IMG/VR virus record: IMGVR_UViG_3300042402_002792
Source of the DNA: a virus
Taxonomy: Duplodnaviria > Heunggongvirae > Uroviricota > Caudoviricetes
Length of the DNA stretch: 64,000 nucleotides
Strand: one strand, 5' to 3'
The translations under genes and the position numbers were made by a program. Numbering within the stretch: the stretch's first letter is position 1; each line of letters starts with the position of its first letter. Shown here in pieces: positions 2 through 37,312 of the stretch. The notes below the pieces were generated by a model. The model had not been told where the DNA came from and ran no database searches. It worked only from the letters and a program-made list of their open reading frames with translations.

Positions 2-3000
2 GTTCGTAACGGAAGTTATACTTATGTTGCGTTATTAGACAGTTTAGGTACTGTAGTTACTAATCAAACATACTGGGGCTTATTAAATCACGGATTTAGA
101 TGGACTAATGTACCTGTAACTTACAACGAAGTATCAACAATAACTGTTACTGGGTTAGGCTCAGGTGCAAAATTTAATATTGTAAGATCAGCAACAGTTT
201 ATGCAGTTACATTAGCTACTGGATTTGAAGGTGCTAATTATGCAGCAGGGGATCGATTAAAAATATTAGGAAGTAGTTTAGGAGGTATTACACCAGCTAA
301 CGACTTGACAATTAATGTAAGTACAGTTTCAACAGGTGCTATTGCAACATTTACATTTAGCGGTGGATCTGTAACATGGAGCATTAATACTGATTATGTT
401 TTAGGTGATGTTGTAACTTACGGCGGTAACAGTTATGTTTGTATACTAGCACACACTGCTTCAGGTGGTAATAAACCTGACGCAGATTTAACCGGTACAT
501 ACTGGAATTTGTTAACAGCAGGTTCAGAAGTTAATATTTTAACTACTACTGGCGACCTAGTATACATGGGCGCAAACGGTCCAACAAGATTACCAGTAGG
601 TATCAATGGTCAAGTTTTACGTAGCGACAACGGGTTACCTATCTGGGCCAACTATGGTTTGATTAATAACCTAGTATATGTAGGTCCTTTAGGAAACGAT
701 TTACCATACCCATTAGCAGGCGCTACTATTGATCAGCCATGGAAGACTCTTCGATATGCATGTAAACAAGTTGAAGAGGGTTATCTAACACCAAACGCTA
801 AACAAGTTATTGCTATGAACAAACAGTTCATAATGAAAGAAGTTAGCGCATGGGTAGATTACACATATACGTTAACTATAACATCTTCTGATCAAACTAC
901 TGACAGATTTACAACTGCAAGTACTGAAAATCTAATAGCTAATATGCCAATTGTATTTTCTGGCACGGTGTTTGGTGGCATTACTTCTGGCACAGTTTAC
1001 TACGTAAAAACTATTATTAGCACAACTGAATTTACTATCAGTAACATTTCAGGTGGAACATTGCGTCAAATTGACACTGCTAGCGGAACTATGACGTTAA
1101 AGCTATCTTACGATGCTACTAAATGTGAAAGAGATGTCGGTATGATTGTTGAAGCAATCAAGCACGATATTTCAAGAGGTGGCACAATGAAGACTACCTA
1201 TGCTGCTAAAACGTACTTTACCGAAGAAGGTAATGCTTATATTACAAATAATTTTGGCGCACAAACTACGCAAACTATTGCAGCTTACAATTTTATGGCA
1301 GAGCTTCTAGAAGATGTAATCAATAATGTTGCATCAAGCAGTTACCAAGTTATTAATGGTAGCACATCTGGTGTTGTACAACAAATTGATTCTACACTAA
1401 CATCAGAATTAGGAACAGCTCAGAAAGCTAAAGACCTTATTCAGATCATAACTACAGCATTAACATTAGGCTCATCTACAGCTATTCCTTTACAAATTTT
1501 ACCAGCAACTACAATTAGTGTTAAGACTGGTACATTTAATGAGATACTTCCTATTGTAATACCTGAGTATACTGCTGTTGTTGGCGACGAGCTTAGAAGT
1601 ACTATTATTCAACCAGCAAGCGGTATAGATATACTTGTAAATGATAAATCTAAAACTACTAGTGCGTTGAACAGAATTAATAGCTTAGTTCCTGATTTAA
1701 TTCAAAATAATGCAATAACTCCTACGTCAGGTAACACTGAACAAAGAAAATACCTTGGCGGATATATAGGCGGAAACACTGCGGTTGTTGCAACTAAAAC
1801 AGATATCATTAAAGACATAACACTAAACGGATTAGGCAGTGTACCAGCTATTTCTTTAACTGATCCAACTGGATACAGTAGCGGTTTCTTAAACGGCCGT
1901 AGACTATTAGTTAGTAACAAAACTTTTATTGTTAGAGAAATTTCAGAATGGATTTTAGCACAAATTGCTGGAAACGTTGCTCCATTTGTTGGTGCTACGT
2001 TTGCTGGTTCAACTCGCACAGATTTTGAAGTAGTTGTAGGATATGTAATTGATGCTCTACGCTACGATTTAACTTATGGCGGCAATTTAGAAACTATTGT
2101 TGCTGCAAGATCTTTCCGATCATTAGGCACCTGGGCAGGACAAATTAACGAAGATAGAACAGCCGCAGCATATACAAGATTATTTGATATTGTCGATAAC
2201 ATTATGCAAGGCGATAACAGTGGTTGGGCAAAAACTCCAGGTAACGTTTTAGTTCAAGACGATTCACTACCACACGGTTCAGCTGAAGCAGCTGATTTTG
2301 CTCAAGATAGATTAGCCGAAATCCTTGATGTTATTGATACAGAAATTTTACCTGATGTGATTGAACCTAATACAGCATGGGTATCAACAAGTCTAATTGA
2401 TGCAAAAAATGCTATTAGTAAATTAAAAACAGGTATTCAACAAGGTGCTATTAATTTCATTAATAGTGAATATCCTTCGCTAGTGTATGATCAAATTCTG
2501 TGTGCTCGTGATGTCGGCTATATGGTAGACGCAGTAGCATACGACATCATGTTCCAGTCAAACTTTAGAAGTATTACCGCTGGAAGACAGTATAGAAGAG
2601 GCATTACCTCAACTCTGGTAGTTATTAACGGTCAGCTAACCGAAACAGCAGCAGTTATTGATTATGTCAAATCTGCTATTGTTAGTATTATGCAACCAAA
2701 AGTTGGATCATTAGGTAGTACACTAGCTGTAGATCGTGTTGAAGAAGCATGTAATGTTATCTATGATTTAGTTAATAGTGGTAACGGCACTCAACCTACA
2801 GTAAACTTGCCAATACCAACCGGCGGAACAAATAACGCATTTACAGCAGGTTTCCTAAATGCTAGAAATCAAATTCGTCAAAACTTAACATTTATTCAAG
2901 ACGAAGTTGCAGCATTTTTAAATGTAAATTATAATGCTGTATGGCTAGCGTTAGGCGCAACAGGTCAAGCAGGATGCCGTAGAGATACACAATTTATTAT

Positions 3001-6000
3001 TGACGGTGTTGTTTATGATTTAACTTATGGCGGTAATACTCAAAGTTTAATTGTAGGTAGTGCTTACTACAGCAACTTTGTTTCAACAATTGATCCAGCA
3101 GAAATTCCTGCTACAGTTGCTGCCTATACTAGAATTAAAACTATTGTAGGACAAATTGCACAAGCACAATCTGTAACACCTAGTGCTGGTAATACAACAC
3201 CTCAAATAACTAGCGGAACTGCTGGTACTGCTGGAGGAGCAACATTTGCACAAGATCGTGTTCAAGATGTTATCGATTGGATCAGTAACGAAACTGCTAA
3301 TGCAACTATTACTCCAGATATTTCTTGGGCAAGTTCTAGTTTACAATTAGCATTTACTACACTTCAAGCTAAGAGAGCAGAAATTGCACAAGATGTTGTA
3401 TGGTGGGTTTATAAATTCCATCAAGATTTAAACTTCAATGAAGATATTTGCCGCAGAGATAGCCTATTATTAGTTGATGCAATTAGTTATGACGTTGTAT
3501 TTGGCAGCAACTTTGCATCAATTACAGCAGGTAAGGCTTATAACAGAGCAACTCCTAGCGCACTAAAAGTTAAGACAGATCAATTACGTGCAGAGTTAGG
3601 AGCAATTAATTTCTTAAAATATAAAGCTAAAATGCTTGCAGGTGTTGGCGGCGCTGCTAGAGTAGATTCTCTAATTAGTGATATTACCGGATATATTAAC
3701 GGTGGTTCTGTGCCTAGAACACAATTTGTAAATCCTACAACAATATCTAGTGCATATGCAGCCGCAGCAGTTTTAGTACAAGATAATAAAGATTTTATCA
3801 AAGCAGAAATTGCAGCTTGGATACAAGCTCAAATTACCGCTAATGCTACAAACTTTGTAGGGTTAGAATTTAACGTAGAAAAATGTCAACGCGATGTAGA
3901 CTATATTTTAGATGCACTACGTTACGATTTAATATATGGGTATGGTATATCTTCAACTAGTAACACTGCGGTTCAAGTAGCAGGATTAGCCTACTACAGC
4001 TACGCAGTCTTGCAAATTGATGCTAATGACAAAGCTGCAACTATTGATACTTACAACAGATTGAAAGCTGTAGTTCAAGCAGTAGCTCAAGACAATGCAG
4101 TAACAGCTAGTGCAGGTAATACTGTTTCGCAAGTACGTGCAGTTACTAATCAAGCTGTAGGTTCTGCTGCTACAGCTACTAGTTTAGGTACTCTTGTTGA
4201 TTTTATTACAAATATTATCAACAGTGGTCCAACAACTGGAGTACCTCGTGTAACAATTACTACAATTGCTGGTGGAACAACACTTACTACTGGTACAAAT
4301 CACGGACTTAAAATCGGAGATCAAATAACTCCTCAGGTTACAGCAAACGGATTAAACATCGATCAAATATATTATGTAGAGTCTATTCCGTTACCAACCA
4401 CACTTACATTATCTTTAACATATGGCGGAGCTGCTATAACAGCATTTACTAATGGTACTGGGTTATCTATCCTAGCAGCAACTGTAACAAATCCTTTAAT
4501 CACATGGGTCGATTCATCGTTAACAACTATTAACAGTTCTATATCTTTAAACAGAAGCAGTGTTATTAGCGATGTAACTTCTTATATTAGTCAAAACTTT
4601 CCAACTTTAAATTATAGTGTTACAACTTGTGAACGCGATTTAGGTTACATTATACAAGCAGTAACATTTGATATGATGTTCTCAAGTACTTATAGAACAA
4701 TTACTGCTGCAAGAAGTTATTATAGAGCAGCAGCATCATTAGTATTAGGAGAACAAAAATCTGCTACGATTGCTGCATTTAGATATCTTAAGACAAAACT
4801 TTTAAGTTATGCTACAATAGGTACAACAGCTCATAAGAGAATTAAATGGTTAATGGATATTATTGTTAACATTTTATCTAACGGTATCGGAAGTACTTCA
4901 GAAGTATTTGGTACTATGACTTATGAAAACGATGTAGGAATTTTTAACACAGCTGAAATTTTAAAAATAAACAAAGAATTTTTAGCAGCAGAGTCAACTG
5001 CCTGGATTACTCAGAATTACGGCGGAACTGTTACAACTACAACAGCATCAACTGGCAGATTTACAACCAGTGCTGCTCATAATTTTGTTGTAGGCGATCC
5101 GATAGAATTTAGTGGAACACCAATTACTGGTAGTAATGTAGCAGTTTCTACAACATATTATGTTTTAGCTGTCCCAACTCCAACTACATTTACGCTATCT
5201 TCAACTCCTGGTGGTACTCTATTACCGGTAGGTAACGGATCTGGATCAATGACTGTTCGATATAGTTTTGACATTGATTTGTGCAAACGTGATATGAGAG
5301 AATATATAGAAGCTATGGTATATGATCTAGCTTACACCGGTAATTATAGATCTTTACGTGCAGCCGAACTATACTTAAATGCAATAAACGGATCTCAGCT
5401 TTCAAATATGTTCTACGTGAGCAATGCTACAGGTTTACGTAACTGTACAGTTAACGGTCTAAACGGAACACTTACAGAAGAAAATGATTACGGTACAAAA
5501 CGCCCAACCGCAGGTGCTTATGTTGCTCTAAACCCAGGATTTGGTCCAAATGATCAAAGCGTATGGGTTAACACACGTTCGCACTATTCACAAAACGTAT
5601 CATTATTTGGTACAGGATGTTCTGGTGCTAAGATCGACGGTGCTATACATGCAGGCGGAAATCGTTCAATGGTTAAGAACGACTTTACAACAATTATATC
5701 AGACGGAATCGGCGTATGGTGTTCTGGAGCTAACAGCTTAACAGAACTTGTTTCGGTATTCGCATATTACTCATATGCTGGGTACTTAGCAGACTTAGGC
5801 GGACGTATTCGTGCTACTAACGGTAATAGTTCATATGGAAGTTTTGGTACTATTGCTGAAGGTACAGATACATTTGAAACACCTATTCTAGCTGAACTTG
5901 ACAATACAGCATCACAGGCTACTATTACAGAAACTATTACTGATTCTCTACAACAAGTGTGGAGAGTAGAATTCCAAAACGCAGGTAAAGGTTACACTAA

Positions 6001-9000
6001 TGCAGACTTTGGTATTAGCGGCGACGGTATTAATGCCGTCGCAGTTGGTGATGAGTTTAGAGACGGAGCAGTATTTGAAACACGAATTTATGATGCTGAC
6101 AACGGTAGTGATGTAGGCGGAACAAACTATGTCAATGCTCTAAATGCTGCTCAAGGCGGAGACAGAGTAAGCATTACTATTGCTGCTACTGATATTGCTC
6201 TAGCTACAGCATATGTAGGTATGCGTATTCAGATAACAGCAGGTACAGGTGTAGGCCAATACGGTAATGTATTAACTTACAATAACGGTACAAAAGTTGC
6301 ACAAATATTTAAAGACAGCTGGGAACCAATAACAATTACTTCAACTACTGATACTGGTGACTATGTAAACATTAGTTCTAATGCAAACTTATATGTTAAC
6401 ATGCCAATTTATTTTACCGGAACTGCATTCGGTGGAGTTACAGCTAATACTTTATATTATGTAAAAGCATTAAATGGTACTACACAGTTTACTATTAGTG
6501 AAACACAAGGCGGTGCAACATTTAACGTAACAACCGGCACTGGTACAATGACATTATTGCAAGCTGGTTGGGATCATGTAATTCCAGGTTATCCAATACA
6601 AGCAGCACTTGATTTATCAAGTTCATATGTAATTGAACCGAGAATTCATTTTACACATCCTGGTTACAATTCAGATTCAACAGCAATGAATGGTTCTTCA
6701 CAAGATCACTTTAGAACTACGTTCGGTGTAGAAAGATATGTTGTAATACCAGCAGCAGCTGGCGCAACAAGGTATTCCACAGATGGAACTACATGGAGTG
6801 TAGGTGGTACTATCAGTTTTGCTCCTTCTGAACTTGTATTTGGTGGAGGTGAAGGTGCAACAGCTACAGCTAGAATAGGTGGACTAGGTGGTGAAGGCGC
6901 TATATTAGAAGCCATTATGGGAGAAACTAATAGCGTAGGTATGCCAGGCGCTGACCAAGTTGTTGGTGTAAGAATTATTGACGGTGGTCGTAACTATACT
7001 ACACCTCCTACACTGGTGTTTACTCCTACACTCGGTGGCGCAGGTGCAGTTGCACTGGCTACAGTTAGAGATGGAAAAATTGACAAAGTTTATTTAGATC
7101 CTATCAACTTCGAAGGAACTGTTAACGGATCAGGCTACTTAAATCCTCCAACTGTTACTGCTGTAACAGATAGAGTAAGTAAGATTACAATTCTAACTAA
7201 AGGTAGAAAATATACTACACTTCCGGCAGTTACTATTAGCAGTCCGTTCCCTAGTGCAAGTGCATGGACTGATGGCGGAAGTGCTGTAAGTGGTACGGTG
7301 TATGCTTATCAAAATATTAGTATTTCACCATATAGAACTAATTACTATCAAGCCACAGCTAGCGGAACATTTAGTTCTACAGCCCCAACATTTACAACAG
7401 GAACTGGTTCAGGTGCTACATATGGTGTTGGATTAACTTATGTAGGTACACAAGCTACAGCTAATGCTACACTAGCTAACCAAGGTATTGACACCATTAC
7501 ATTAGATTATGTAGGTGCAGGGTATAGTTCAACTCCAACAGTAACAATTACAGATCCAACAGCAAAATTTGTCTGTATTCAAAGCGGCGGCACTGGTACT
7601 AATTACCTACCAGCAACTTCAGTACCAACAGCTAACTGGACAGCAGGTGGCTCGTTAGCAGCATCAACTTTTGTAGGATTAGCGCACGGAACGCCAAATG
7701 CAGGAATATATGTTGCAGTTGGTGGCACAAATGCTGCGGCTTCAAGCGGTGATGGTATTACATGGACTACTAGAACTATTCCAACATTAGGATCTGGGAC
7801 ATATAGGGCAGTTGCATACGGAGCCGGTCGCTTTGTTGCAATATCTACTGCTACTGCTACTGCTACAAGTACTAACGGTACAACATGGACAGCAGGAGGA
7901 AATCTACCAGCAGGAGTAACATGGACTAGTGTTGCATACGGTAATGGTAGATTTGTTGCTGTTGGTGCAAATAGTCGCGTTACAGCATACAGTTACGACG
8001 GCGGCATAACATGGATTAATTCTACAACAGTTGGCGCAGGAATTCCTAACAGAAACTGGGTGCGAATCAAGTACGGTCAAGGATTATTTGTTGCAATACC
8101 TGATGGATCTCAATTTATTTCAACAAGTACAGATGGTGTTTATTGGACTGAAAGAGATATAGGTTCTGGTGCACCTGGCGGCCCGAGAGATATAGTGTTA
8201 GGTAATCCTAATGGTGTACCGTTATGGCATTTAACTACAAGCGGTGTTACTGGCAGAATAATTAGAACAGGTGTTAAAGCACTAGGTCGTATGAAAGCTG
8301 CATCTGGCAGCGTAGTTGAAACTAGAATGGTTGAACCTGGTAGTGGGTATCCTCAAGGGGCTGTGTCTGCTACAACAGCAAGTACAAACTTGATTACAGC
8401 TAGTATAACTACAAATCTAGTAGATTCTCAACCAATTATATTTGCAGGACTTGATTCTTACGGATTAGTAACAGAGAAAATTTATTATGTAATAGGTTCA
8501 ACTATTACAAGTACACAATTTAAAGTCAGCTTAGTTTCTGGCAGCTCAACTCCAGTGGTATTAACTACTGCTACAGGGCTAACAGGTACATATAAGGCAG
8601 GTCCAATACACACTCAGTTTGATCCAAACAGAGTTCAAAGTGCTTCGTTAAATCCTCGCACAGGTAATGGTGCTTTAGGAAATCCAAGCTTTACTAATAG
8701 AGGTACAAGCTATACAACTGCGACTGCTGATGTATCAGGAGACGGCCGAGCTGATTACTATCAACCATTAACATTTGTTAGTGTACGAAACTTATACGAA
8801 GTACCACAGGCTGGTTCAAACGTTGTGTTTGATTCTATTCCTGGTGTTTGGTTTAAACTAGTAGCAGTAACAAACGTCTTAGGTGACCCAGGCGAGTTTA
8901 CTGGTACATTCCAAATTAGTCCAGGATTAACCACATTAGAAGCACCTATTGACGGTGACGGAATGACTACTACTATTAAGTACAGTCAAGTTCGTTTAAC

Positions 9001-9550
9001 AGGACATGACTTCTTGTATATCGGTACTGGTAATCAAGCACAAACTAACTATCCATTTGTTGATCCTACTACTGCTAGTATTGCAGTACAAACAAAAGCT
9101 AGTGGTGGTGGACGATGCTTCTTTACAAGTACTGACCAAGACGGTAACTTTAACGTTGGCGGATTGTTTGGAGTTCAACAGTCAACAGGTACTGCTACAT
9201 TGAACGCAGATGCGTTTAATCTAAGCGGTCTACAGAGTTTGCAGTTAGGACAGTTAAATATCGGTGTTGGAAGTGCAGTTATTACGCAGTTCTCAACAGA
9301 CCCGTATTTTACTGCTAATAGCGATAGTATTTTACCAACTCAACGAGCAATTAAAGCTTACATTACTGCACAGATTGGTGGCGGACAAAGCTCATTGAAC
9401 GTAAATACACTTACAGCTGGTGTAGTTTATATTGCTAACGACAGTATTTCTACAACAACAGGAGCACAATTAAACATCAAATCAAAGATGAACTTTACAG
9501 GCGGCATTGACGGAGCTCCTGTAGCTTTAGGATACTTTTTATCAAGATAA
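2..9550 (+). CDS. Giant repeat-rich virion/tail-fibre protein, 5'-partial
   Basis: Frame is open from base 2 through the listed TTG start at 305, so the gene begins left of the window. It has a CBM5/12-like motif (WSINTDYVLGDVVTYGGNSYVC), 8 helical CxRD repeats, about 5 beta-barrel YYV repeats, AYGxGRFVA propeller-like repeats and a C-terminal RLTGHDFL block typical of large phage structural proteins. Confidence 0.8.
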   Translation, partial: VRNGSYTYVALLDSLGTVVTNQTYWGLLNHGFRWTNVPVTYNEVSTITVTGLGSGAKFNIVRSATVYAVTLATGFEGANYAAGDRLKILGSSLGGITPANDLTINVSTVSTGAIATFTFSGGSVTWSINTDYVLGDVVTYGGNSYVCILAHTASGGNKPDADLTGTYWNLLTAGSEVNILTTTGDLVYMGANGPTRLPVGINGQVLRSDNGLPIWANYGLINNLVYVGPLGNDLPYPLAGATIDQPWKTLRYACKQVEEGYLTPNAKQVIAMNKQFIMKEVSAWVDYTYTLTITSSDQTTDRFTTASTENLIANMPIVFSGTVFGGITSGTVYYVKTIISTTEFTISNISGGTLRQIDTASGTMTLKLSYDATKCERDVGMIVEAIKHDISRGGTMKTTYAAKTYFTEEGNAYITNNFGAQTTQTIAAYNFMAELLEDVINNVASSSYQVINGSTSGVVQQIDSTLTSELGTAQKAKDLIQIITTALTLGSSTAIPLQILPATTISVKTGTFNEILPIVIPEYTAVVGDELRSTIIQPASGIDILVNDKSKTTSALNRINSLVPDLIQNNAITPTSGNTEQRKYLGGYIGGNTAVVATKTDIIKDITLNGLGSVPAISLTDPTGYSSGFLNGRRLLVSNKTFIVREISEWILAQIAGNVAPFVGATFAGSTRTDFEVVVGYVIDALRYDLTYGGNLETIVAARSFRSLGTWAGQINEDRTAAAYTRLFDIVDNIMQGDNSGWAKTPGNVLVQDDSLPHGSAEAADFAQDRLAEILDVIDTEILPDVIEPNTAWVSTSLIDAKNAISKLKTGIQQGAINFINSEYPSLVYDQILCARDVGYMVDAVAYDIMFQSNFRSITAGRQYRRGITSTLVVINGQLTETAAVIDYVKSAIVSIMQPKVGSLGSTLAVDRVEEACNVIYDLVNSGNGTQPTVNLPIPTGGTNNAFTAGFLNARNQIRQNLTFIQDEVAAFLNVNYNAVWLALGATGQAGCRRDTQFIIDGVVYDLTYGGNTQSLIVGSAYYSNFVSTIDPAEIPATVAAYTRIKTIVGQIAQAQSVTPSAGNTTPQITSGTAGTAGGATFAQDRVQDVIDWISNETANATITPDISWASSSLQLAFTTLQAKRAEIAQDVVWWVYKFHQDLNFNEDICRRDSLLLVDAISYDVVFGSNFASITAGKAYNRATPSALKVKTDQLRAELGAINFLKYKAKMLAGVGGAARVDSLISDITGYINGGSVPRTQFVNPTTISSAYAAAAVLVQDNKDFIKAEIAAWIQAQITANATNFVGLEFNVEKCQRDVDYILDALRYDLIYGYGISSTSNTAVQVAGLAYYSYAVLQIDANDKAATIDTYNRLKAVVQAVAQDNAVTASAGNTVSQVRAVTNQAVGSAATATSLGTLVDFITNIINSGPTTGVPRVTITTIAGGTTLTTGTNHGLKIGDQITPQVTANGLNIDQIYYVESIPLPTTLTLSLTYGGAAITAFTNGTGLSILAATVTNPLITWVDSSLTTINSSISLNRSSVISDVTSYISQNFPTLNYSVTTCERDLGYIIQAVTFDMMFSSTYRTITAARSYYRAAASLVLGEQKSATIAAFRYLKTKLLSYATIGTTAHKRIKWLMDIIVNILSNGIGSTSEVFGTMTYENDVGIFNTAEILKINKEFLAAESTAWITQNYGGTVTTTTASTGRFTTSAAHNFVVGDPIEFSGTPITGSNVAVSTTYYVLAVPTPTTFTLSSTPGGTLLPVGNGSGSMTVRYSFDIDLCKRDMREYIEAMVYDLAYTGNYRSLRAAELYLNAINGSQLSNMFYVSNATGLRNCTVNGLNGTLTEENDYGTKRPTAGAYVALNPGFGPNDQSVWVNTRSHYSQNVSLFGTGCSGAKIDGAIHAGGNRSMVKNDFTTIISDGIGVWCSGANSLTELVSVFAYYSYAGYLADLGGRIRATNGNSSYGSFGTIAEGTDTFETPILAELDNTASQATITETITDSLQQVWRVEFQNAGKGYTNADFGISGDGINAVAVGDEFRDGAVFETRIYDADNGSDVGGTNYVNALNAAQGGDRVSITIAATDIALATAYVGMRIQITAGTGVGQYGNVLTYNNGTKVAQIFKDSWEPITITSTTDTGDYVNISSNANLYVNMPIYFTGTAFGGVTANTLYYVKALNGTTQFTISETQGGATFNVTTGTGTMTLLQAGWDHVIPGYPIQAALDLSSSYVIEPRIHFTHPGYNSDSTAMNGSSQDHFRTTFGVERYVVIPAAAGATRYSTDGTTWSVGGTISFAPSELVFGGGEGATATARIGGLGGEGAILEAIMGETNSVGMPGADQVVGVRIIDGGRNYTTPPTLVFTPTLGGAGAVALATVRDGKIDKVYLDPINFEGTVNGSGYLNPPTVTAVTDRVSKITILTKGRKYTTLPAVTISSPFPSASAWTDGGSAVSGTVYAYQNISISPYRTNYYQATASGTFSSTAPTFTTGTGSGATYGVGLTYVGTQATANATLANQGIDTITLDYVGAGYSSTPTVTITDPTAKFVCIQSGGTGTNYLPATSVPTANWTAGGSLAASTFVGLAHGTPNAGIYVAVGGTNAAASSGDGITWTTRTIPTLGSGTYRAVAYGAGRFVAISTATATATSTNGTTWTAGGNLPAGVTWTSVAYGNGRFVAVGANSRVTAYSYDGGITWINSTTVGAGIPNRNWVRIKYGQGLFVAIPDGSQFISTSTDGVYWTERDIGSGAPGGPRDIVLGNPNGVPLWHLTTSGVTGRIIRTGVKALGRMKAASGSVVETRMVEPGSGYPQGAVSATTASTNLITASITTNLVDSQPIIFAGLDSYGLVTEKIYYVIGSTITSTQFKVSLVSGSSTPVVLTTATGLTGTYKAGPIHTQFDPNRVQSASLNPRTGNGALGNPSFTNRGTSYTTATADVSGDGRADYYQPLTFVSVRNLYEVPQAGSNVVFDSIPGVWFKLVAVTNVLGDPGEFTGTFQISPGLTTLEAPIDGDGMTTTIKYSQVRLTGHDFLYIGTGNQAQTNYPFVDPTTASIAVQTKASGGGRCFFTSTDQDGNFNVGGLFGVQQSTGTATLNADAFNLSGLQSLQLGQLNIGVGSAVITQFSTDPYFTANSDSILPTQRAIKAYITAQIGGGQSSLNVNTLTAGVVYIANDSISTTTGAQLNIKSKMNFTGGIDGAPVALGYFLSR

Positions 9551-27918: not shown

Positions 27919-30900
27919 ATGGCATTAAGTTCACCAGGCGTAGAAGTCAAAGTAATTGACGAATCGTTTTATACACCAGCAGCTCCTGGCACAGTACCAC
28001 TAGTAATTGTTGCCTCTGCTGAAAACAAAGCAAACAGCGGAGGTACCGGAACCGCCCCGGGCACACTTAAAGCCAACGCTGGAGAAGTTTATCTTCTAAC
28101 AAGTCAGCGTGACTTAGGTGATGTATTCGGAGATCCAGTCTTTAAGACAGATTCGAATAACAATCCTATCCATGCTGGAGAGCAAAACGAATACGGTTTA
28201 CAAGCCGCATATAGTTTATTAGGTGTTAGCAATCGTGCATTTGTTGTACGTGCTGATTTAGATCTAAATCAACTAGATGCTCGCGCTACAGAACCAGATT
28301 CAAATCCAGCCAATGGAACACACTGGCTAGATACTAGTATTACAGCATTTGGTATTTTTGAATGGAACGGTGCACCTGTAACAACACGTGGCGGACAAAA
28401 GTTTACTAACAAAGTTCCTCGTGTAATTACAGATTCGACTAAAGTCGATTCTGGCACAGGCGGTCCTTTAGCTTCGGTTGGTGCTATCGGCGACTATTGT
28501 ATGGTAATGGTCGACGACGATCCAGATACTCCTACACTAACAACTAGTGTTCCTGGCAAATTATGGTACAGAAGCAGAGGTGTTGCTCCTGGACAAGATC
28601 CTGGACAGTGGGTTGAAGTAGGGTCAAATGAATGGTTTAAGAGTTGGCCTGTAATTACAGGAACAGCAATCAATCCAAACTTAAATGCAAACAACGGTCA
28701 AACATTTACAATTAATGGTGTAACAATTACAGCAGGAACTACTTTAGCTAGTGTTGTTACAGACATCAATACAAAAATGGCTGCACAAGGGATTAGTTCA
28801 GCTATTGTAAATGGAAAACTTGAAATGTATTCAGACGGTGCTCAAGGTTTAAATCCTGAAGATAGCACATCTGCTAACAGTGTAGTTATTGCTAACGGTA
28901 CAGGTACACTAGTTGCTGCTAACGGCGGCGTATTAGGTATTAAACCAGCTACTTACTATGCACCAAGATTAACTATTAGCAAGCATACACAAGTTCCTCA
29001 GTGGAAATCTTCAAACGCTGCTCCAAGACCTACAGGTTCTGTATGGATTAAAACAACCGAACCTAATTTAGGTTCACGTTGGAGAGTAAAACGTTGGGAC
29101 GACGCAACTAGTGCATGGGAAAGAGTTGAGGCTCCGCTTTATGCTAATGGTGAAACTGCTATCAACAATTTAGATCCAGCAGGCGGCGGCATAAGTCTTC
29201 CAGTTGGTACATTATATGTACAAACAAATTACACAGAAGATAACGGCACAGATAATAGTCCTCGTTTAGCTTCATGGAAAATTTGGCGCAAAGGCGGCTA
29301 CGAAACTGCTACTGTGATTAAAACACAAAAAGTCATTAACGGCAACGTTACAGCTGGTGCAAAATCTTTCAGACTTGCAGAAAGTTTACAAGGTTCTAAT
29401 GTACTAGGTGACTACGACGGAAACGGTAGTTACAGTTATAAGACTGTAAGTTGGACAGCTACTGGTACTATAGCTGATGCTGACGCAATGGCTGAAGCAA
29501 TTAATTCAGCAGGGTTTACAAATATTGAAGCAGAAGTTGATTCACAAAATCGTGTTTTAATTAAACACAAATTAGGTGGCGATTTCCGTATGAAAGAAGG
29601 AACAGGAACTCCTCTTGTAGATTACGGAATCAGCGCATACGATTATGAACCAAGTTCAGGTAGTTATAGAACAGGTACTGAATTTGTTTTTGCAGCACCA
29701 GCAGGTGATATGTTGCATGATTTTGTAGCAAGTTCATGGGAACCTTTAGTATATGCAGCTAATGCAGATGCTCCTACACGTATTCCAGTGGACGGACGCC
29801 TATGGTATAGTTCTGTAATCGACGAAGTTGATATTATGATCCACGATGGTGAAAACTGGGTTGGATATCAAAATTATGCAGACTACGGTGCAACAGATCC
29901 AAATGGTCCTATTGTAAGTGCAACAGCACCAGAGCTTCAAAGTGAAGGCGGCGCATTAGTAACAGGTGATCTATGGATTAGTACAGATGATATGGAAAAT
30001 TTCCCTCAAATTTATAGATTTAATTTTGATTTAGAAAATCTTCCAATTGCAAGACGTTGGGTACTGCTAGACAAAACAGATCAAAGCACTGAAGATGGAG
30101 TACTATTTGCAGATGCTCGCTATAATACAGCGGGAGCAAATAGCGACGAACAGGGCGATATAGTAAGTTTACTAACAAGTGACTACGTTGATCCTGATTG
30201 TCCAGATCCAGCATTGTATCCAAAAGGCATGTTACTATGGAACTTACGTAGAAGCGGTTATAACGTAAAAGAATTCAAACGTGATTATATTAACACAGCT
30301 GATGACAACGTTCGTTATGACCCAGGCTCAACAGGCGGTCAAGCAATGGCTGACTACTATCCACATCGTTGGGTAACAGTTTCTAGCAACCAAGACGACG
30401 GCTCTGGTAGCTTTGGACGTAAAGCACAACGTAAAGTTGTTGTACAAGCCTTACAAGCTACAGTTAATAGTAATCAACAGATCCGTGACGAAGACGGACG
30501 TATCTTTAACTTAATTGCTTGCCCAGGTTATCCTGAGCTAATCGGCGAAATGGTTACATTGAACTACGATCGTGGGCTAACAGCATTTGTTGTTGGTGAT
30601 ACTCCTGCTCGTTTAACACCTGATGCAACCAGCTTGCTACGTTGGGGTAATAATGAGCTAATTGCTGTAGAAGATAACGATATCGGAGCAGCTAGCTTTG
30701 ACGAGTACATGGCTATGTTCTATCCATGGGGCTTCACAAGCGACAACTTTGGTAACAATGTTGTTATTCCTCCAAGTCATATGATGTTAAGAGTTATTGC
30801 TCTAAACGATCAGGTAGCTTATCCATGGTTTGCACCAGCAGGTGTACGTCGTGGCGGCATTACTAACGCAACCGCAGTTGGCTATGTTAACAGCGAAGGC

Positions 30901-31356
30901 GAATTTAGAAGTGTAGCACTAAACACAGGACAACGTGATACGCTATACGAAACAAAGGTTAATCCTATTACATTCTTTACAGGTACAGGATTAGTTAACT
31001 ATGGTCAAAAGACACGTGCTCGCGCAGCCAGTGCTTTAGATCGTATTAACGTAGCTCGACTAATTGTTTACTTACGTAGACAACTAGCTGTTTTAGCTAA
31101 ACCATATATCTTTGAACCAAACGATAAGATTACTAGAGATGAAATTAAGGCAGCGGTTGAAGCTTTACTATTAGAACTAGTAGGACAACGTGCTCTATAC
31201 GATTACCTAGTTGTATGTGACGAAAGTAACAATACACCTAACAGAATTGATCGTAATGAGTTATGGATTGACATAGCAATTGAACCAGTTAAAGCAGTTG
31301 AATTTATTTACATTCCACTACGCTTGAAGAATACTGGCGAAATTGCTGGCCTATAA
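27919..31356 (+). CDS. gp18: Tail sheath protein (large, 1145 aa)
   Basis: MALSSPGVEVKVIDES start; PWFAPAG, DRINVARL, FEPND, CDESNNTP..ID, P.KAVEFI C-terminus. Confidence 0.97.
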   Translation: MALSSPGVEVKVIDESFYTPAAPGTVPLVIVASAENKANSGGTGTAPGTLKANAGEVYLLTSQRDLGDVFGDPVFKTDSNNNPIHAGEQNEYGLQAAYSLLGVSNRAFVVRADLDLNQLDARATEPDSNPANGTHWLDTSITAFGIFEWNGAPVTTRGGQKFTNKVPRVITDSTKVDSGTGGPLASVGAIGDYCMVMVDDDPDTPTLTTSVPGKLWYRSRGVAPGQDPGQWVEVGSNEWFKSWPVITGTAINPNLNANNGQTFTINGVTITAGTTLASVVTDINTKMAAQGISSAIVNGKLEMYSDGAQGLNPEDSTSANSVVIANGTGTLVAANGGVLGIKPATYYAPRLTISKHTQVPQWKSSNAAPRPTGSVWIKTTEPNLGSRWRVKRWDDATSAWERVEAPLYANGETAINNLDPAGGGISLPVGTLYVQTNYTEDNGTDNSPRLASWKIWRKGGYETATVIKTQKVINGNVTAGAKSFRLAESLQGSNVLGDYDGNGSYSYKTVSWTATGTIADADAMAEAINSAGFTNIEAEVDSQNRVLIKHKLGGDFRMKEGTGTPLVDYGISAYDYEPSSGSYRTGTEFVFAAPAGDMLHDFVASSWEPLVYAANADAPTRIPVDGRLWYSSVIDEVDIMIHDGENWVGYQNYADYGATDPNGPIVSATAPELQSEGGALVTGDLWISTDDMENFPQIYRFNFDLENLPIARRWVLLDKTDQSTEDGVLFADARYNTAGANSDEQGDIVSLLTSDYVDPDCPDPALYPKGMLLWNLRRSGYNVKEFKRDYINTADDNVRYDPGSTGGQAMADYYPHRWVTVSSNQDDGSGSFGRKAQRKVVVQALQATVNSNQQIRDEDGRIFNLIACPGYPELIGEMVTLNYDRGLTAFVVGDTPARLTPDATSLLRWGNNELIAVEDNDIGAASFDEYMAMFYPWGFTSDNFGNNVVIPPSHMMLRVIALNDQVAYPWFAPAGVRRGGITNATAVGYVNSEGEFRSVALNTGQRDTLYETKVNPITFFTGTGLVNYGQKTRARAASALDRINVARLIVYLRRQLAVLAKPYIFEPNDKITRDEIKAAVEALLLELVGQRALYDYLVVCDESNNTPNRIDRNELWIDIAIEPVKAVEFIYIPLRLKNTGEIAGL

Positions 31357-35716: not shown

Positions 35717-37312
35717 ATGGCAACAAAAAGTTTAGACGGCGTTTTAACCAAAAAAGCCCATACTAAAGAAACATTTACAGAGCAACAGATTGCTGATTTG
35801 CTCAAGTGCAGTTCTGACGACGGGTATCATCATTTCTGTAGTACCTTCTTTTATATACAGCACCCTGTTAAAGGTAAGATGCTGTTTGAACCATTTGAGT
35901 ATCAAACACGGTTATTAGATGCTTACCACGGACATAGATTTAATATTAACATGTTACCTCGACAGATGGGTAAAACTACCTGTGCTGCTGGTTACTTGTT
36001 ATGGTATGCCATGTTCCACCCGGATCAGACAATATTAATTAGTGCTCACAAATATACTGGTTCGCAAGAAATTATGCAGCGTATTAGATACGCTTATGAA
36101 TTATGTCCTGACTACATTCGTAGTGGGGTAGTAAACTACAATAAAGGGAGTATAGAATTTGATAATGGATCACGTATTGTCTCTACAACTACTACTGGCA
36201 ACACAGGTCGTGGTATGTCTATTTCCCTACTATACTGTGACGAGTTTGCATTTGTTCCGCCTAATATTGCAGACGAATTCTGGACTTCAATTTCGCCAAC
36301 ACTAGCAACTGGTGGTAAAGCAATCATTACTTCAACACCGAACAGTGACGAAGATACATTTGCTACTATATGGAAAGAAGCTAATAAAAAATTTGACGAG
36401 TTTGGTAACGAGAAAGAAACGGGTGTGAACGGATTCTTTCCGTTTACATGCTCTTGGAGTGAACATCCAGATAGAGATGATGCATGGGCAACAACAGAAA
36501 GGGGTCGTATTGGTGAAGAACGATTCCGTCGAGAATACAATTGTGAATTCTTAGTATTTGACGAAACACTAATTAACAGTATTCATCTTGCTGGCATGGA
36601 AGGGCGAAACCCTATAATGAATTTGGGACAAGTCCGTTGGTATAAAGAAATTAAAAAAGACATGTTATATGCAGTAAGTTTAGATCCTAGTTTAGGCACC
36701 GGCGGAAATAGATCTGCTATTCAAGTTGTTGAATTGCCCTCATTTATACAGGTTGGCGAATGGCATCATAATCTTACACCTATACAAGGTCAAATAAGAA
36801 TTCTTAAAGAGATACTACAGTATATTCAAACTCAAATAGGTGACGAAAGTAGTAACAGCCTTTACTGGAGTATTGAAAATAATAACATTGGCGAAGCTGG
36901 TTTAATTTGTATTAAAGACATAGGTGAAGATCAGTTTCCTGGGTTGTTTGTCAGTGAGCCTATACGAAAAGGGCATGTACGCAAATTCCGTAAAGGGTTT
37001 AATACTACACATAAAGCTAAAATTAGTGCCTGTGCTAGATTGAAATACCTAATCGAATCAAACAAAATGACCATTAACAGTAAACCTTTAATTACTGAAC
37101 TAAAATCTTTTATAGCACAGGGTGTAAGTTTTCAAGGTAAAATGGAAGAGCCTGACGATTTAGTCAGTGCTATGCTGTTAATTGTACGTATGACACAGGT
37201 ATTAGCTGACTGGGATGCAAGGGTATTTGATAGCTTTAGTACTAATGACGGAATTAATGACGAAGATTACGAAATGCCTATGCCCATTTATGTTTCGTCA
37301 ACCCTAGCATAA
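35717..37312 (+). CDS. gp17: Terminase large subunit
   Basis: PRQMGKTT Walker A, LLYCDEFAF Walker B, TSTPN, RuvC-like LDP and DDLV. Confidence 0.97.
   Translation: MATKSLDGVLTKKAHTKETFTEQQIADLLKCSSDDGYHHFCSTFFYIQHPVKGKMLFEPFEYQTRLLDAYHGHRFNINMLPRQMGKTTCAAGYLLWYAMFHPDQTILISAHKYTGSQEIMQRIRYAYELCPDYIRSGVVNYNKGSIEFDNGSRIVSTTTTGNTGRGMSISLLYCDEFAFVPPNIADEFWTSISPTLATGGKAIITSTPNSDEDTFATIWKEANKKFDEFGNEKETGVNGFFPFTCSWSEHPDRDDAWATTERGRIGEERFRREYNCEFLVFDETLINSIHLAGMEGRNPIMNLGQVRWYKEIKKDMLYAVSLDPSLGTGGNRSAIQVVELPSFIQVGEWHHNLTPIQGQIRILKEILQYIQTQIGDESSNSLYWSIENNNIGEAGLICIKDIGEDQFPGLFVSEPIRKGHVRKFRKGFNTTHKAKISACARLKYLIESNKMTINSKPLITELKSFIAQGVSFQGKMEEPDDLVSAMLLIVRMTQVLADWDARVFDSFSTNDGINDEDYEMPMPIYVSSTLA

Follow-up and report, generated by a model that had tools for sequence, protein, structure and literature searches.

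Phycobiliproteins are the antenna pigments of cyanobacteria and algae, and paralogs have lately been found in heterotrophic bacteria. In phycobiliproteins, Cys84 forms a thioether with the linear tetrapyrrole (bilin), Arg86 makes contact with a propionate, and Asp87 forms hydrogen bonds to the pyrrole nitrogens; an X-Y hairpin and an Asp13-Arg93 pair build the alpha-beta monomer. In cyanobacteria, S-type lyases act on Cys84-type sites. The same type of domain is embedded in ApcE, a large multidomain component of the cellular antenna in which a single such domain is followed by linker repeats. In ApcE, the loop that joins helices B and E contains an insertion, the chromophore Cys is at another position, and the bilin is attached without a lyase. 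Outside cyanobacterial antennae, phycobiliprotein paralogs termed bilin biosynthesis-associated globins (BBAGs) are associated with genes for bilin reductases (Rockwell et al. 2023; PMC10151467), and they have been put forward as possible partners of phage-made bilin (PMC11480375). The sequence considered here, a 64,000-nucleotide stretch (the window) of the IMG/VR record IMGVR_UViG_3300042402_002792 from an uncultured virus, begins with a single open reading frame (ORF) (nt 2-9550, + strand) of 3182 aa (protein P0001) that is open at the 5' edge of the window. The encoded protein, of the giant tail-fiber type, contains a series of eight domains that belong to a family sharing its ancestry with phycobiliproteins, and seven of the eight retain the Cys-Arg-Asp triad of the bilin site.

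In order to delimit the repeats, a hidden Markov model (HMM) was used that had been built from 71 diverse units, five of them from the window (alignment A2). It identified eight units of ~150 aa in P0001. Seven of these contain the motif C-x-R-D (aa 375, 834, 992, 1150, 1295, 1543, and 1761), and the Cys codons (nt 1124, 2501, 2975, 3449, 3884, 4628, and 5282) lie exactly where a preliminary description of the sequence had placed them. The Cys-less copy that it had reported at nt 2024 was confirmed as well, with F-E-V-V in place of C-x-R-D, and Cys-to-Cys distances of 159, 158, 158, and 145 aa agree with its spacing of 145-159 aa. The motif accounts for 7 of the 15 Cys residues of P0001. In 20,000 shuffles of the protein, C-x-R-D arose by chance 0.025 times on average and never more than twice. 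The units are of two subtypes, which take turns along the protein in the order B ... B A B A B A B. The three type A units (Cys 834, 1150, and 1543) share the pattern ...YD..F.SN.RSITA, and type B (positions 375, 675, 992, 1295, and 1761) is marked by ...YDL.YGGN.

All eight units are encoded on the + strand. Unit 1 (type B, nt 773-1399; Cys codon 1124, KCERD) is split into helices A-B (~773-871), a beta-rich insert (872-1099), and the Cys helix onward (1100-1399); HMM positions 63-156 correspond to aa 367-466, and the N-terminal half was placed by visual recognition of the NKQFIMKEVSAW helix. Unit 2 (type B, aa 597-742, nt 1790-2227; E, 3.8e-24) is the Cys-less copy, with F-E-V-V at nt 2024-2035 and the downstream ...DALRYDLTYGGN retained. 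It is followed by unit 3 (type A, nt 2300-2710; E, 7e-43; Cys codon 2501, LCARDVGY), unit 4 (type B, nt 2738-3232; E, 1.2e-43; Cys codon 2975, GCRRD), unit 5 (type A, nt 3248-3643; delimited from the repeat HMM and the AlphaFold model; Cys codon 3449, ICRRD), and unit 6 (type B, nt 3662-4162; E, 6.9e-42; Cys codon 3884, KCQRD). Between units 6 and 7, nt 4163-4474 fall outside HMM coverage and are predicted to encode a beta-rich spacer module. Unit 7 (type A, nt 4475-4894; E, 2.1e-42; Cys codon 4628, TCERDLGY) precedes unit 8 (type B, nt 4844-5401; Cys codon 5282, LCKRD), which is both split and C-terminally truncated; its N-terminal half (nt 4844-5032; HMM positions 3-65, aa 1615-1677) and its Cys helix (nt 5261-5401; HMM positions 64-109, aa 1754-1800) flank a beta-rich insert (nt 5033-5260). 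The insertion of a module just before the Cys helix in the first and last copies, as had been described earlier, was thus reproduced by the HMM, which is interrupted at position 63/64 in both units by inserts of ~75 aa.

The earlier proposal that the repeats have a globin or phycobiliprotein fold was borne out by AlphaFold models and by structure searches with Foldseek and VIA-align. An AlphaFold2 model of three units (aa 760-1260, with 103 orthologs in the input) was all-helical, with a mean predicted local distance difference test score (pLDDT) of 84.2. Foldseek matched this model to phycobiliprotein beta chains with a probability of 1.00 and target-normalized template modeling (TM) scores of 0.59-0.71, and the best 50 VIA-align matches were to phycobiliproteins only (Z, 16.1-14.2; root mean square deviation [rmsd], mostly 2-3 Å; 130-157 residues). 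These VIA alignments landed on the type B unit 4 (Cys992; Z, 16.1; rmsd, 3.1 Å; 152 residues). A model of a single type A unit (unit 3, aa 792-932, with 95 paralogous units in the input) had seven helices (pLDDT, 89.7; predicted TM score, 0.86), and all of its best 50 Foldseek matches were phycobiliproteins with a probability of 1.00. The best TM scores were those of smURFP (0.74/0.77; rmsd, 2.4 Å) and the ApcE bilin domain (0.71/0.69). When the same model was compared, independently of Foldseek, with 48,161 PDB representatives, the top eight were again all phycobiliproteins, the ApcE bilin domain included (Z, 15.1-12.5). RsbR and sensor globins came next (Z, 12.4-9), with photocobilin domains also following, and hemoglobins scored 6-8. 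Far from being unlike a globin, the outcome that the preliminary description had named as speaking against it, a single repeat led to phycobiliproteins in these searches. At the level of predicted structure, the phycobiliprotein type of globin fold (helices A-B-E-F'-F-G-H) is confirmed for the units, with Z scores of 15-16 and rmsd values of 2-3 Å over 120-157 aligned residues. Because the unit aligns to phycobiliprotein residues ~31-159 only, the units are without the X-Y hairpin.

Profile comparisons point to the same relationship. The Pfam phycobiliprotein profile PF00502 scored above its gathering cut-off of 22.2 bits on relatives with 30-35% identity to the window's protein, namely, P0021 (50.1 bits; E, 3.9e-13; three stretches), P0083 (35.1 bits), and P0012 (27.3 bits), and each match began shortly before the Cys and continued to the domain end. 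The A2 profile gave 35 marginal matches among all PDB sequences (E, 0.02-1.6), 34 of which were phycocyanin alpha, phycoerythrocyanin beta, or smURFP. In these alignments the repeat Cys coincided with Cys84, and helix B was matched as well. The resemblance of the flanks to phycocyanin noted earlier also held, as helix B and the "ALKYIK" helix aligned in the proposed manner, with the Cys on chromophore Cys84. A profile of type A units only was marginal against PDB sequences, and nothing useful came from searching PDB sequences with the repeat region as a single query. In a direct comparison with 31 CpcA and CpcB sequences taken from cpcBA loci of cyanobacterial genomes (alignment A4), hhalign gave the A2 profile a probability of 90.8% (P, 1.2e-6, for a single comparison) over 89 columns (phycobiliprotein columns 38-139), and the type A profile (A3) gave 85.3% (P, 5.9e-6). 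Since fold, profile statistics, and motif register agree, common ancestry of the repeat family with phycobiliproteins is regarded as established, and the window's protein is placed in this family by its 30-93% identity to members.

Rather than canonical antenna subunits, the units are a variant of the phycobiliprotein domain that lacks the hairpin, stands in tandem, and is presumably borne on the virion. In common with the alpha and beta chains of C-phycocyanin, allophycocyanin, and phycoerythrin, they have K-C-x-R-D-[IV]-G-Y on helix E, in register with Cys84/Arg86/Asp87, and they share Tyr+13 and Gly-Gly+18/19 with CpcA. In contrast, a phycobiliprotein is a free subunit of ~165 aa, whereas eight phage units (elsewhere up to 37) stand in tandem in one polypeptide that lacks the hairpins and is encoded by a phage of a probably nonphotosynthetic host. 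Arg93, which is invariant in the 31 A4 sequences, is replaced in the phage units by Asp+9 (84%). The ApcE bilin domain (PDB 4XXI) ranks among the top two structural matches (Z, 14.9; rmsd, 2.4 Å) and resembles the phage units in being a phycobiliprotein-type domain embedded in a large multidomain protein. Units 1 and 8 are split at the site of the ApcE B-E insertion. ApcE differs in having only one such domain, in a cellular component. BBAGs are small proteins in the cells of heterotrophic bacteria, and the phage units are parts of giant proteins; the small globin beside a bilin reductase gene that characterizes BBAGs was not found here, adjacency of units to pcyA being limited to cyanophages of the Sf-CH3 type. 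The BBAG paper has no mention of phage carriage or tandem repeats (PMC10151467). The closest known phage counterparts are giant proteins of T4-like cyanophages (S-PM2p091, the 3779-aa S-PM2 ORF, SfCH3_28, and the P-HM2 4458-aa ORF; PHROGs 4527, 5342, and 701), which share the KC[x]RD unit and have 22-27% identity to the window's protein. The cyanophage units are fewer (nine in S-PM2, at least seven in Sf-CH3, and four in P-HM2) and more scattered. These proteins are annotated as fiber or structural proteins only, and a phycobiliprotein-like domain goes unmentioned in the literature and records searched.

Conservation of the triad was evaluated in 1320 HMM-detected units from 121 proteins with a mean column identity of ~21%; every seed of the HMM carried the motif, and the units are related by descent. 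Cys (position 0) was present in 94% of the units, Arg (+2) in 95%, and Asp (+3) in 98%. Arg was absent from 55 of 85 Cys-less units and from only 15 of 1235 units with Cys. After clustering at 50% identity, done to lessen the nonindependence of the units, Arg was still absent from 13 of 26 Cys-less clusters compared to 6 of 165 Cys clusters (Fisher, 3.9e-9). The phage-specific residues D+9, Y+13, D+14, and N+20 were equally conserved in Cys-less units and are therefore considered structural. As judged from the alignments, Cys and Arg, and in part Asp, appear to form a functional module apart from these structural positions. In Cys-less units the Cys was mostly exchanged for Phe, Trp, or Tyr, whose side chain may fill the vacated pocket. 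A disulfide role for the Cys was rejected as the main explanation, as each unit has a single Cys, assembly takes place in the cytoplasm, and the Cys is coupled to the Arg.

The distribution of bilin genes among relatives was also surveyed. The most complete relative, the viral record G002 (318 kb, 85% complete), encodes the repeat protein, a 5-aminolevulinate synthase (ALAS; 566.8 bits), and adjacent heme oxygenase and ferredoxin-dependent bilin reductase (FDBR) genes. In a search that started from the FDBR of G002 and covered viral records of ≥100 kb, all seven of the other records with an FDBR had units, including all three that were ≥90% complete. ALAS was found in two of the five longest of the FDBR-carrying records. 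Relatives linked through the terminase are mostly short fragments; units were present in four of the five long ones, and an FDBR was present in none, at a completeness of ≤56%.

Bilin genes also adjoin units in cultured cyanophages. In the Synechococcus phage Sf-CH3, the gene order is cpeT, tRNAs, a 2-oxoglutarate (2OG)-Fe(II) oxygenase, pcyA, and a 4327-aa virion structural protein, so that pcyA directly precedes the gene for a protein with at least five units, four of which read KC[KE]RD. In S-PM2, cpeT and the 2OG oxygenase gene lie upstream of the gene for the 3779-aa protein with units; five more units are found in p091, another giant protein of this phage. The two loci are syntenic downstream of gp5 (Sf-CH3, PV340851.1 19578-34862; S-PM2, NC_006820.1 163952-177267), with pcyA in Sf-CH3 only. 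The RefSeq record of S-PM2 places 16 tRNA features (NC_006820.1 168556-173383) inside the uninterrupted 3779-codon ORF (165928-177267), which looks like annotation displacement rather than biology. In P-SSM4 and S-TIM4, pcyA is not beside a giant gene.

The gene for P0001 (nt 2-9550, + strand) was identified as that of a giant tail-fiber-type virion protein from the ORF call, its orthologs, the neighboring genes, and matches to PHROG tail-fiber families (phrog_9851, E 1e-88; phrog_4527, E 3.5e-51; phrog_5342, E 6.8e-44; also 701). It is truncated at its 5' end; because full-length orthologs are ~3478 aa, ~296 codons are absent from the window. The protein is presumably a physical part of the virion, as its homologs in S-PM2 and Sf-CH3 are annotated as virion structural. 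A CBM_5_12 carbohydrate-binding module near the N terminus (aa 125-157, nt 374-472, + strand; PF02839, 34.3 bits versus a cut-off of 26.2) is kept in most orthologs, and the whole-protein match to phrog_9851 ("tail fiber protein") defines a C-terminal tail-fiber domain (aa 2990-3124, nt 8969-9373, + strand). A beta-rich module of ~65 aa (P[IV]xFxG ... YY[VI] ... TxFx[IL]S) occurs in at least four copies (nt 872-1099, 5033-5260, ~6360-6570, and ~8385-8595, + strand; aa ~300-366, 1690-1753, 2120-2190, and 2795-2865), two of which lie inside units 1 and 8, in the loop between helices B and E. Downstream of the repeats, in the C-terminal half, S-x-D-G-x-T-W motifs (BNR/Asp-box-like) at nt ~6776, 7745, and 7868 (aa 2259, 2582, and 2623) suggest a beta-propeller or sialidase-like region.

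The gene directly after the giant ORF is a tail-fiber gene that matches long-tail-fiber families, and genes for an unusually long tail sheath protein (1145 aa, nt 27919-31356) and the terminase (nt 35717-37312) lie further on. The window also encodes homologs of gp32, UvsX, UvsW, gp41, and gp61. The terminase is nearest that of the Pseudomonas jumbo phage PA5oct (56%), followed by those of Agrobacterium phage Atu_ph07 and Sinorhizobium phage Phosso, and the virus is therefore regarded as a T4-related jumbo phage rather than a cyanophage. On this sequence evidence, a cyanobacterial host is improbable. Contigs that encode orthologs of P0001 are up to 371 kb long, and they include metagenome contigs of 268-371 kb. 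A DNA-level search of the phage collection gave no match, and the nearest record, the 39.5-kb fragment G001, had no match to PF00502. When the unit profile was searched against 1.84 billion proteins, 1591 cluster representatives were detected at E ≤ 0.001 and 1188 at E ≤ 1e-10; the 150 matches listed were all long proteins (913-6382 aa) with up to 37 units each. In three IMG/VR records with terminases 74-83% identical to that of the window (G022, G023, and G025), units occur in two or three giant ORFs per genome (2545, 1975, and 2166 aa in G022), which indicates that the domain is common to paralogous fiber proteins.

We propose that the repeat region forms the shaft of a giant tail-fiber- or baseplate-type virion protein of a T4-related jumbo phage. 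It is a string of eight globin-fold domains that share their ancestry with phycobiliproteins, with the triad in seven, and each Cys-bearing unit would hold a covalently bound bilin. Loading would take place inside the infected cell, the pigment coming from the phage ALAS, heme oxygenase, and FDBR, and the finished particle would carry chromophores in a row on its fibers. The probability that the Cys-bearing units covalently carry a bilin, making the particle pigmented, is put at roughly 0.5. Of what the preliminary description had proposed, the phycobiliprotein-fold domains stood, and a bilin on the particle, which it had suggested, is favored by the conservation of the triad and by the genomic associations. 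Attachment of bilin, its route (autocatalytic or through a lyase), and its purpose are what we infer from these data. The lyase-free attachment in ApcE provides a precedent for lyase-free loading. Help from a CpeT-type lyase might be imagined, and an S-type lyase is another possible loader of phage units (compare the S-CREM2 paper, PMC10665884). Among purposes, a light-dependent change of the fiber is the most attractive, with photoprotection or stabilization of the fold as alternatives. The fuller scheme, in which the units are loaded by the phage ALAS, HemO, and FDBR (with host bilin in cyanophages), possibly aided by a CpeT- or S-type lyase, and the virion acts as a photoreceptor that alters its fiber in light, is put forward as speculation and is rather unlikely to hold in all its parts.

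Several observations weigh against a bound bilin. There is no heme oxygenase or FDBR gene within the window; the preliminary description had advised looking for bilin synthesis or lyase genes elsewhere in the genome. Pelagibacter phage Mosig, which has heme oxygenase and PcyX, and P-SSM2, which has an FDBR, showed no unit at E ≤ 0.001, and bilin genes thus do not require units. S-PM2 has units and no FDBR; its host makes bilins. No CpeT- or CpeS-type lyase gene was found in G002. PF00502 gave no match above its gathering score on P0001 or on its eight single units, and the long-contig association of units with FDBR may reflect shared ancestry of one phage clade. Individual units drop the Cys even between close orthologs. 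In P0002, the closest ortholog (93% identical), unit 3 reads S-A-I-D (aa ~1130), with both Cys and Arg lost, and unit 6 reads W-Q-R-D (aa ~1583), with Cys lost. With two of seven already gone in P0002, single Cys sites are dispensable and turn over fast.

Some of these observations would also be expected if the units were chromophore-free rigid spacers derived from an ancient phycobiliprotein-type globin, in which C-x-R-D was kept for folding or for packing between units or chains. The loss of Cys from single units with the protein retained, the production of bilins without units by Mosig and P-SSM2, and the lack of a detected lyase in G002 all fit such spacers, as does the position of the units within a structural protein amid beta-rich fiber modules. 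Furthermore, D+9, D+14, N+20, and Y+30, which are not bilin ligands in phycobiliproteins, are conserved equally or more, a sign of strong constraint of a purely structural kind. However, the triad residues are precisely the ligand contacts in phycobiliproteins, Cys and Arg are lost jointly while the structural positions are kept, and Cys gives way to bulky aromatics rather than to Ala or Ser. Free Cys is otherwise rare in the protein (8 of 15 outside the motif, in 3182 aa), and the units co-occur with bilin genes and in some phages adjoin pcyA or cpeT. Plain spacers are the main rival explanation, possible but less likely than a bound bilin. It is unlikely that the triad serves another ligand, such as a metal ion between chains or a heme-like tetrapyrrole, or that the Cys cross-links chains. 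The globin fold also houses heme, sensor globins and photocobilin domains came next in the fold search, metal ions are coordinated along the axis of many tail fibers, and the joint conservation of Cys and acidic residues is compatible with such a role, but the sequence and profile matches center on the bilin site of phycobiliproteins rather than on the heme histidines of globins, and a propionate contact accounts for the coupling of Arg to Cys more readily than a metal site does.

Two further explanations carry much less weight. The preliminary description had considered that the particle might recognize a bilin or sense its host, and the units could in principle bind a bilin or phycobiliprotein of the host during adsorption, as the fold is of the bilin-binding type and unit-bearing cyanophages infect hosts rich in phycobiliproteins. 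This alternative found no support. Bilins and phycobilisomes lie inside the cell, where a virion does not meet them during adsorption, the phages nearest by terminase infect heterotrophs, and the units would lie in the shaft rather than at the C-terminal tip, which makes a receptor-binding role very improbable. Even less credible is convergence or chance, that is, a generic helical bundle in which C-x-R-D is present by coincidence. The matches to PDB sequences were indeed marginal (E, 0.02-1.6), and PF00502 missed the units of the window. Yet phycobiliproteins alone led 48,161 representatives and reached Z scores of 15-16, hhalign gave a P value of 1.2e-6 in one comparison, PF00502 matched relatives with 30-35% identity at up to 50 bits, and there is agreement in the motif, in its register on helix E, and in the helices that flank it.

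Phage structural proteins made from phycobiliprotein-like domains make up a large family that is new relative to the literature searched; in that literature, which included few subscription journals, no phycobiliprotein-like domains in phage structural proteins were described. In phages with valaS-hemO-pcyA/X, the heme-catabolic genes were called "still enigmatic," and binding of the product to a phycobiliprotein paralog was raised as a mere possibility (Wegner et al. 2024; PMC11480375). The role of pcyA and pebS in cyanophages was described as "a mystery" and that of cpeT as "unresolved" (Sullivan et al. 2010; PMC3037559). Were the units to carry bilin, the particles would be pigmented, and the units would be the acceptor for the products of phage hemO, pcyA, pcyX, and pebS, and perhaps of cpeT.

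Adsorption of P-HM2 did not occur in the dark, and P-SSM2 and P-SSP7 adsorbed in the dark (Liu et al. 2019; PMC6628666). In P-HM2, ORFs of 4458 and 3682 aa contain units that read KCARD and KCIRD. No unit was detectable in P-SSM2 or P-SSP7. The presence of units and the need for light agree in all four cultured phages that could be compared, S-PM2 and P-HM2 having both and P-SSM2 and P-SSP7 having neither; with n = 4, this match is only suggestive. S-PM2, P-HM2, and Sf-CH3 are cultured phages with units, and the idea is therefore open to a direct bench test. If the fibers do act as photoreceptors, this would explain the bilin-synthesis genes of phages, including those of nonphotosynthetic hosts, and would provide a candidate light sensor for the unexplained light-dependent adsorption of cyanomyoviruses (PMC6628666), which in some of them requires light irrespective of host photosynthesis.

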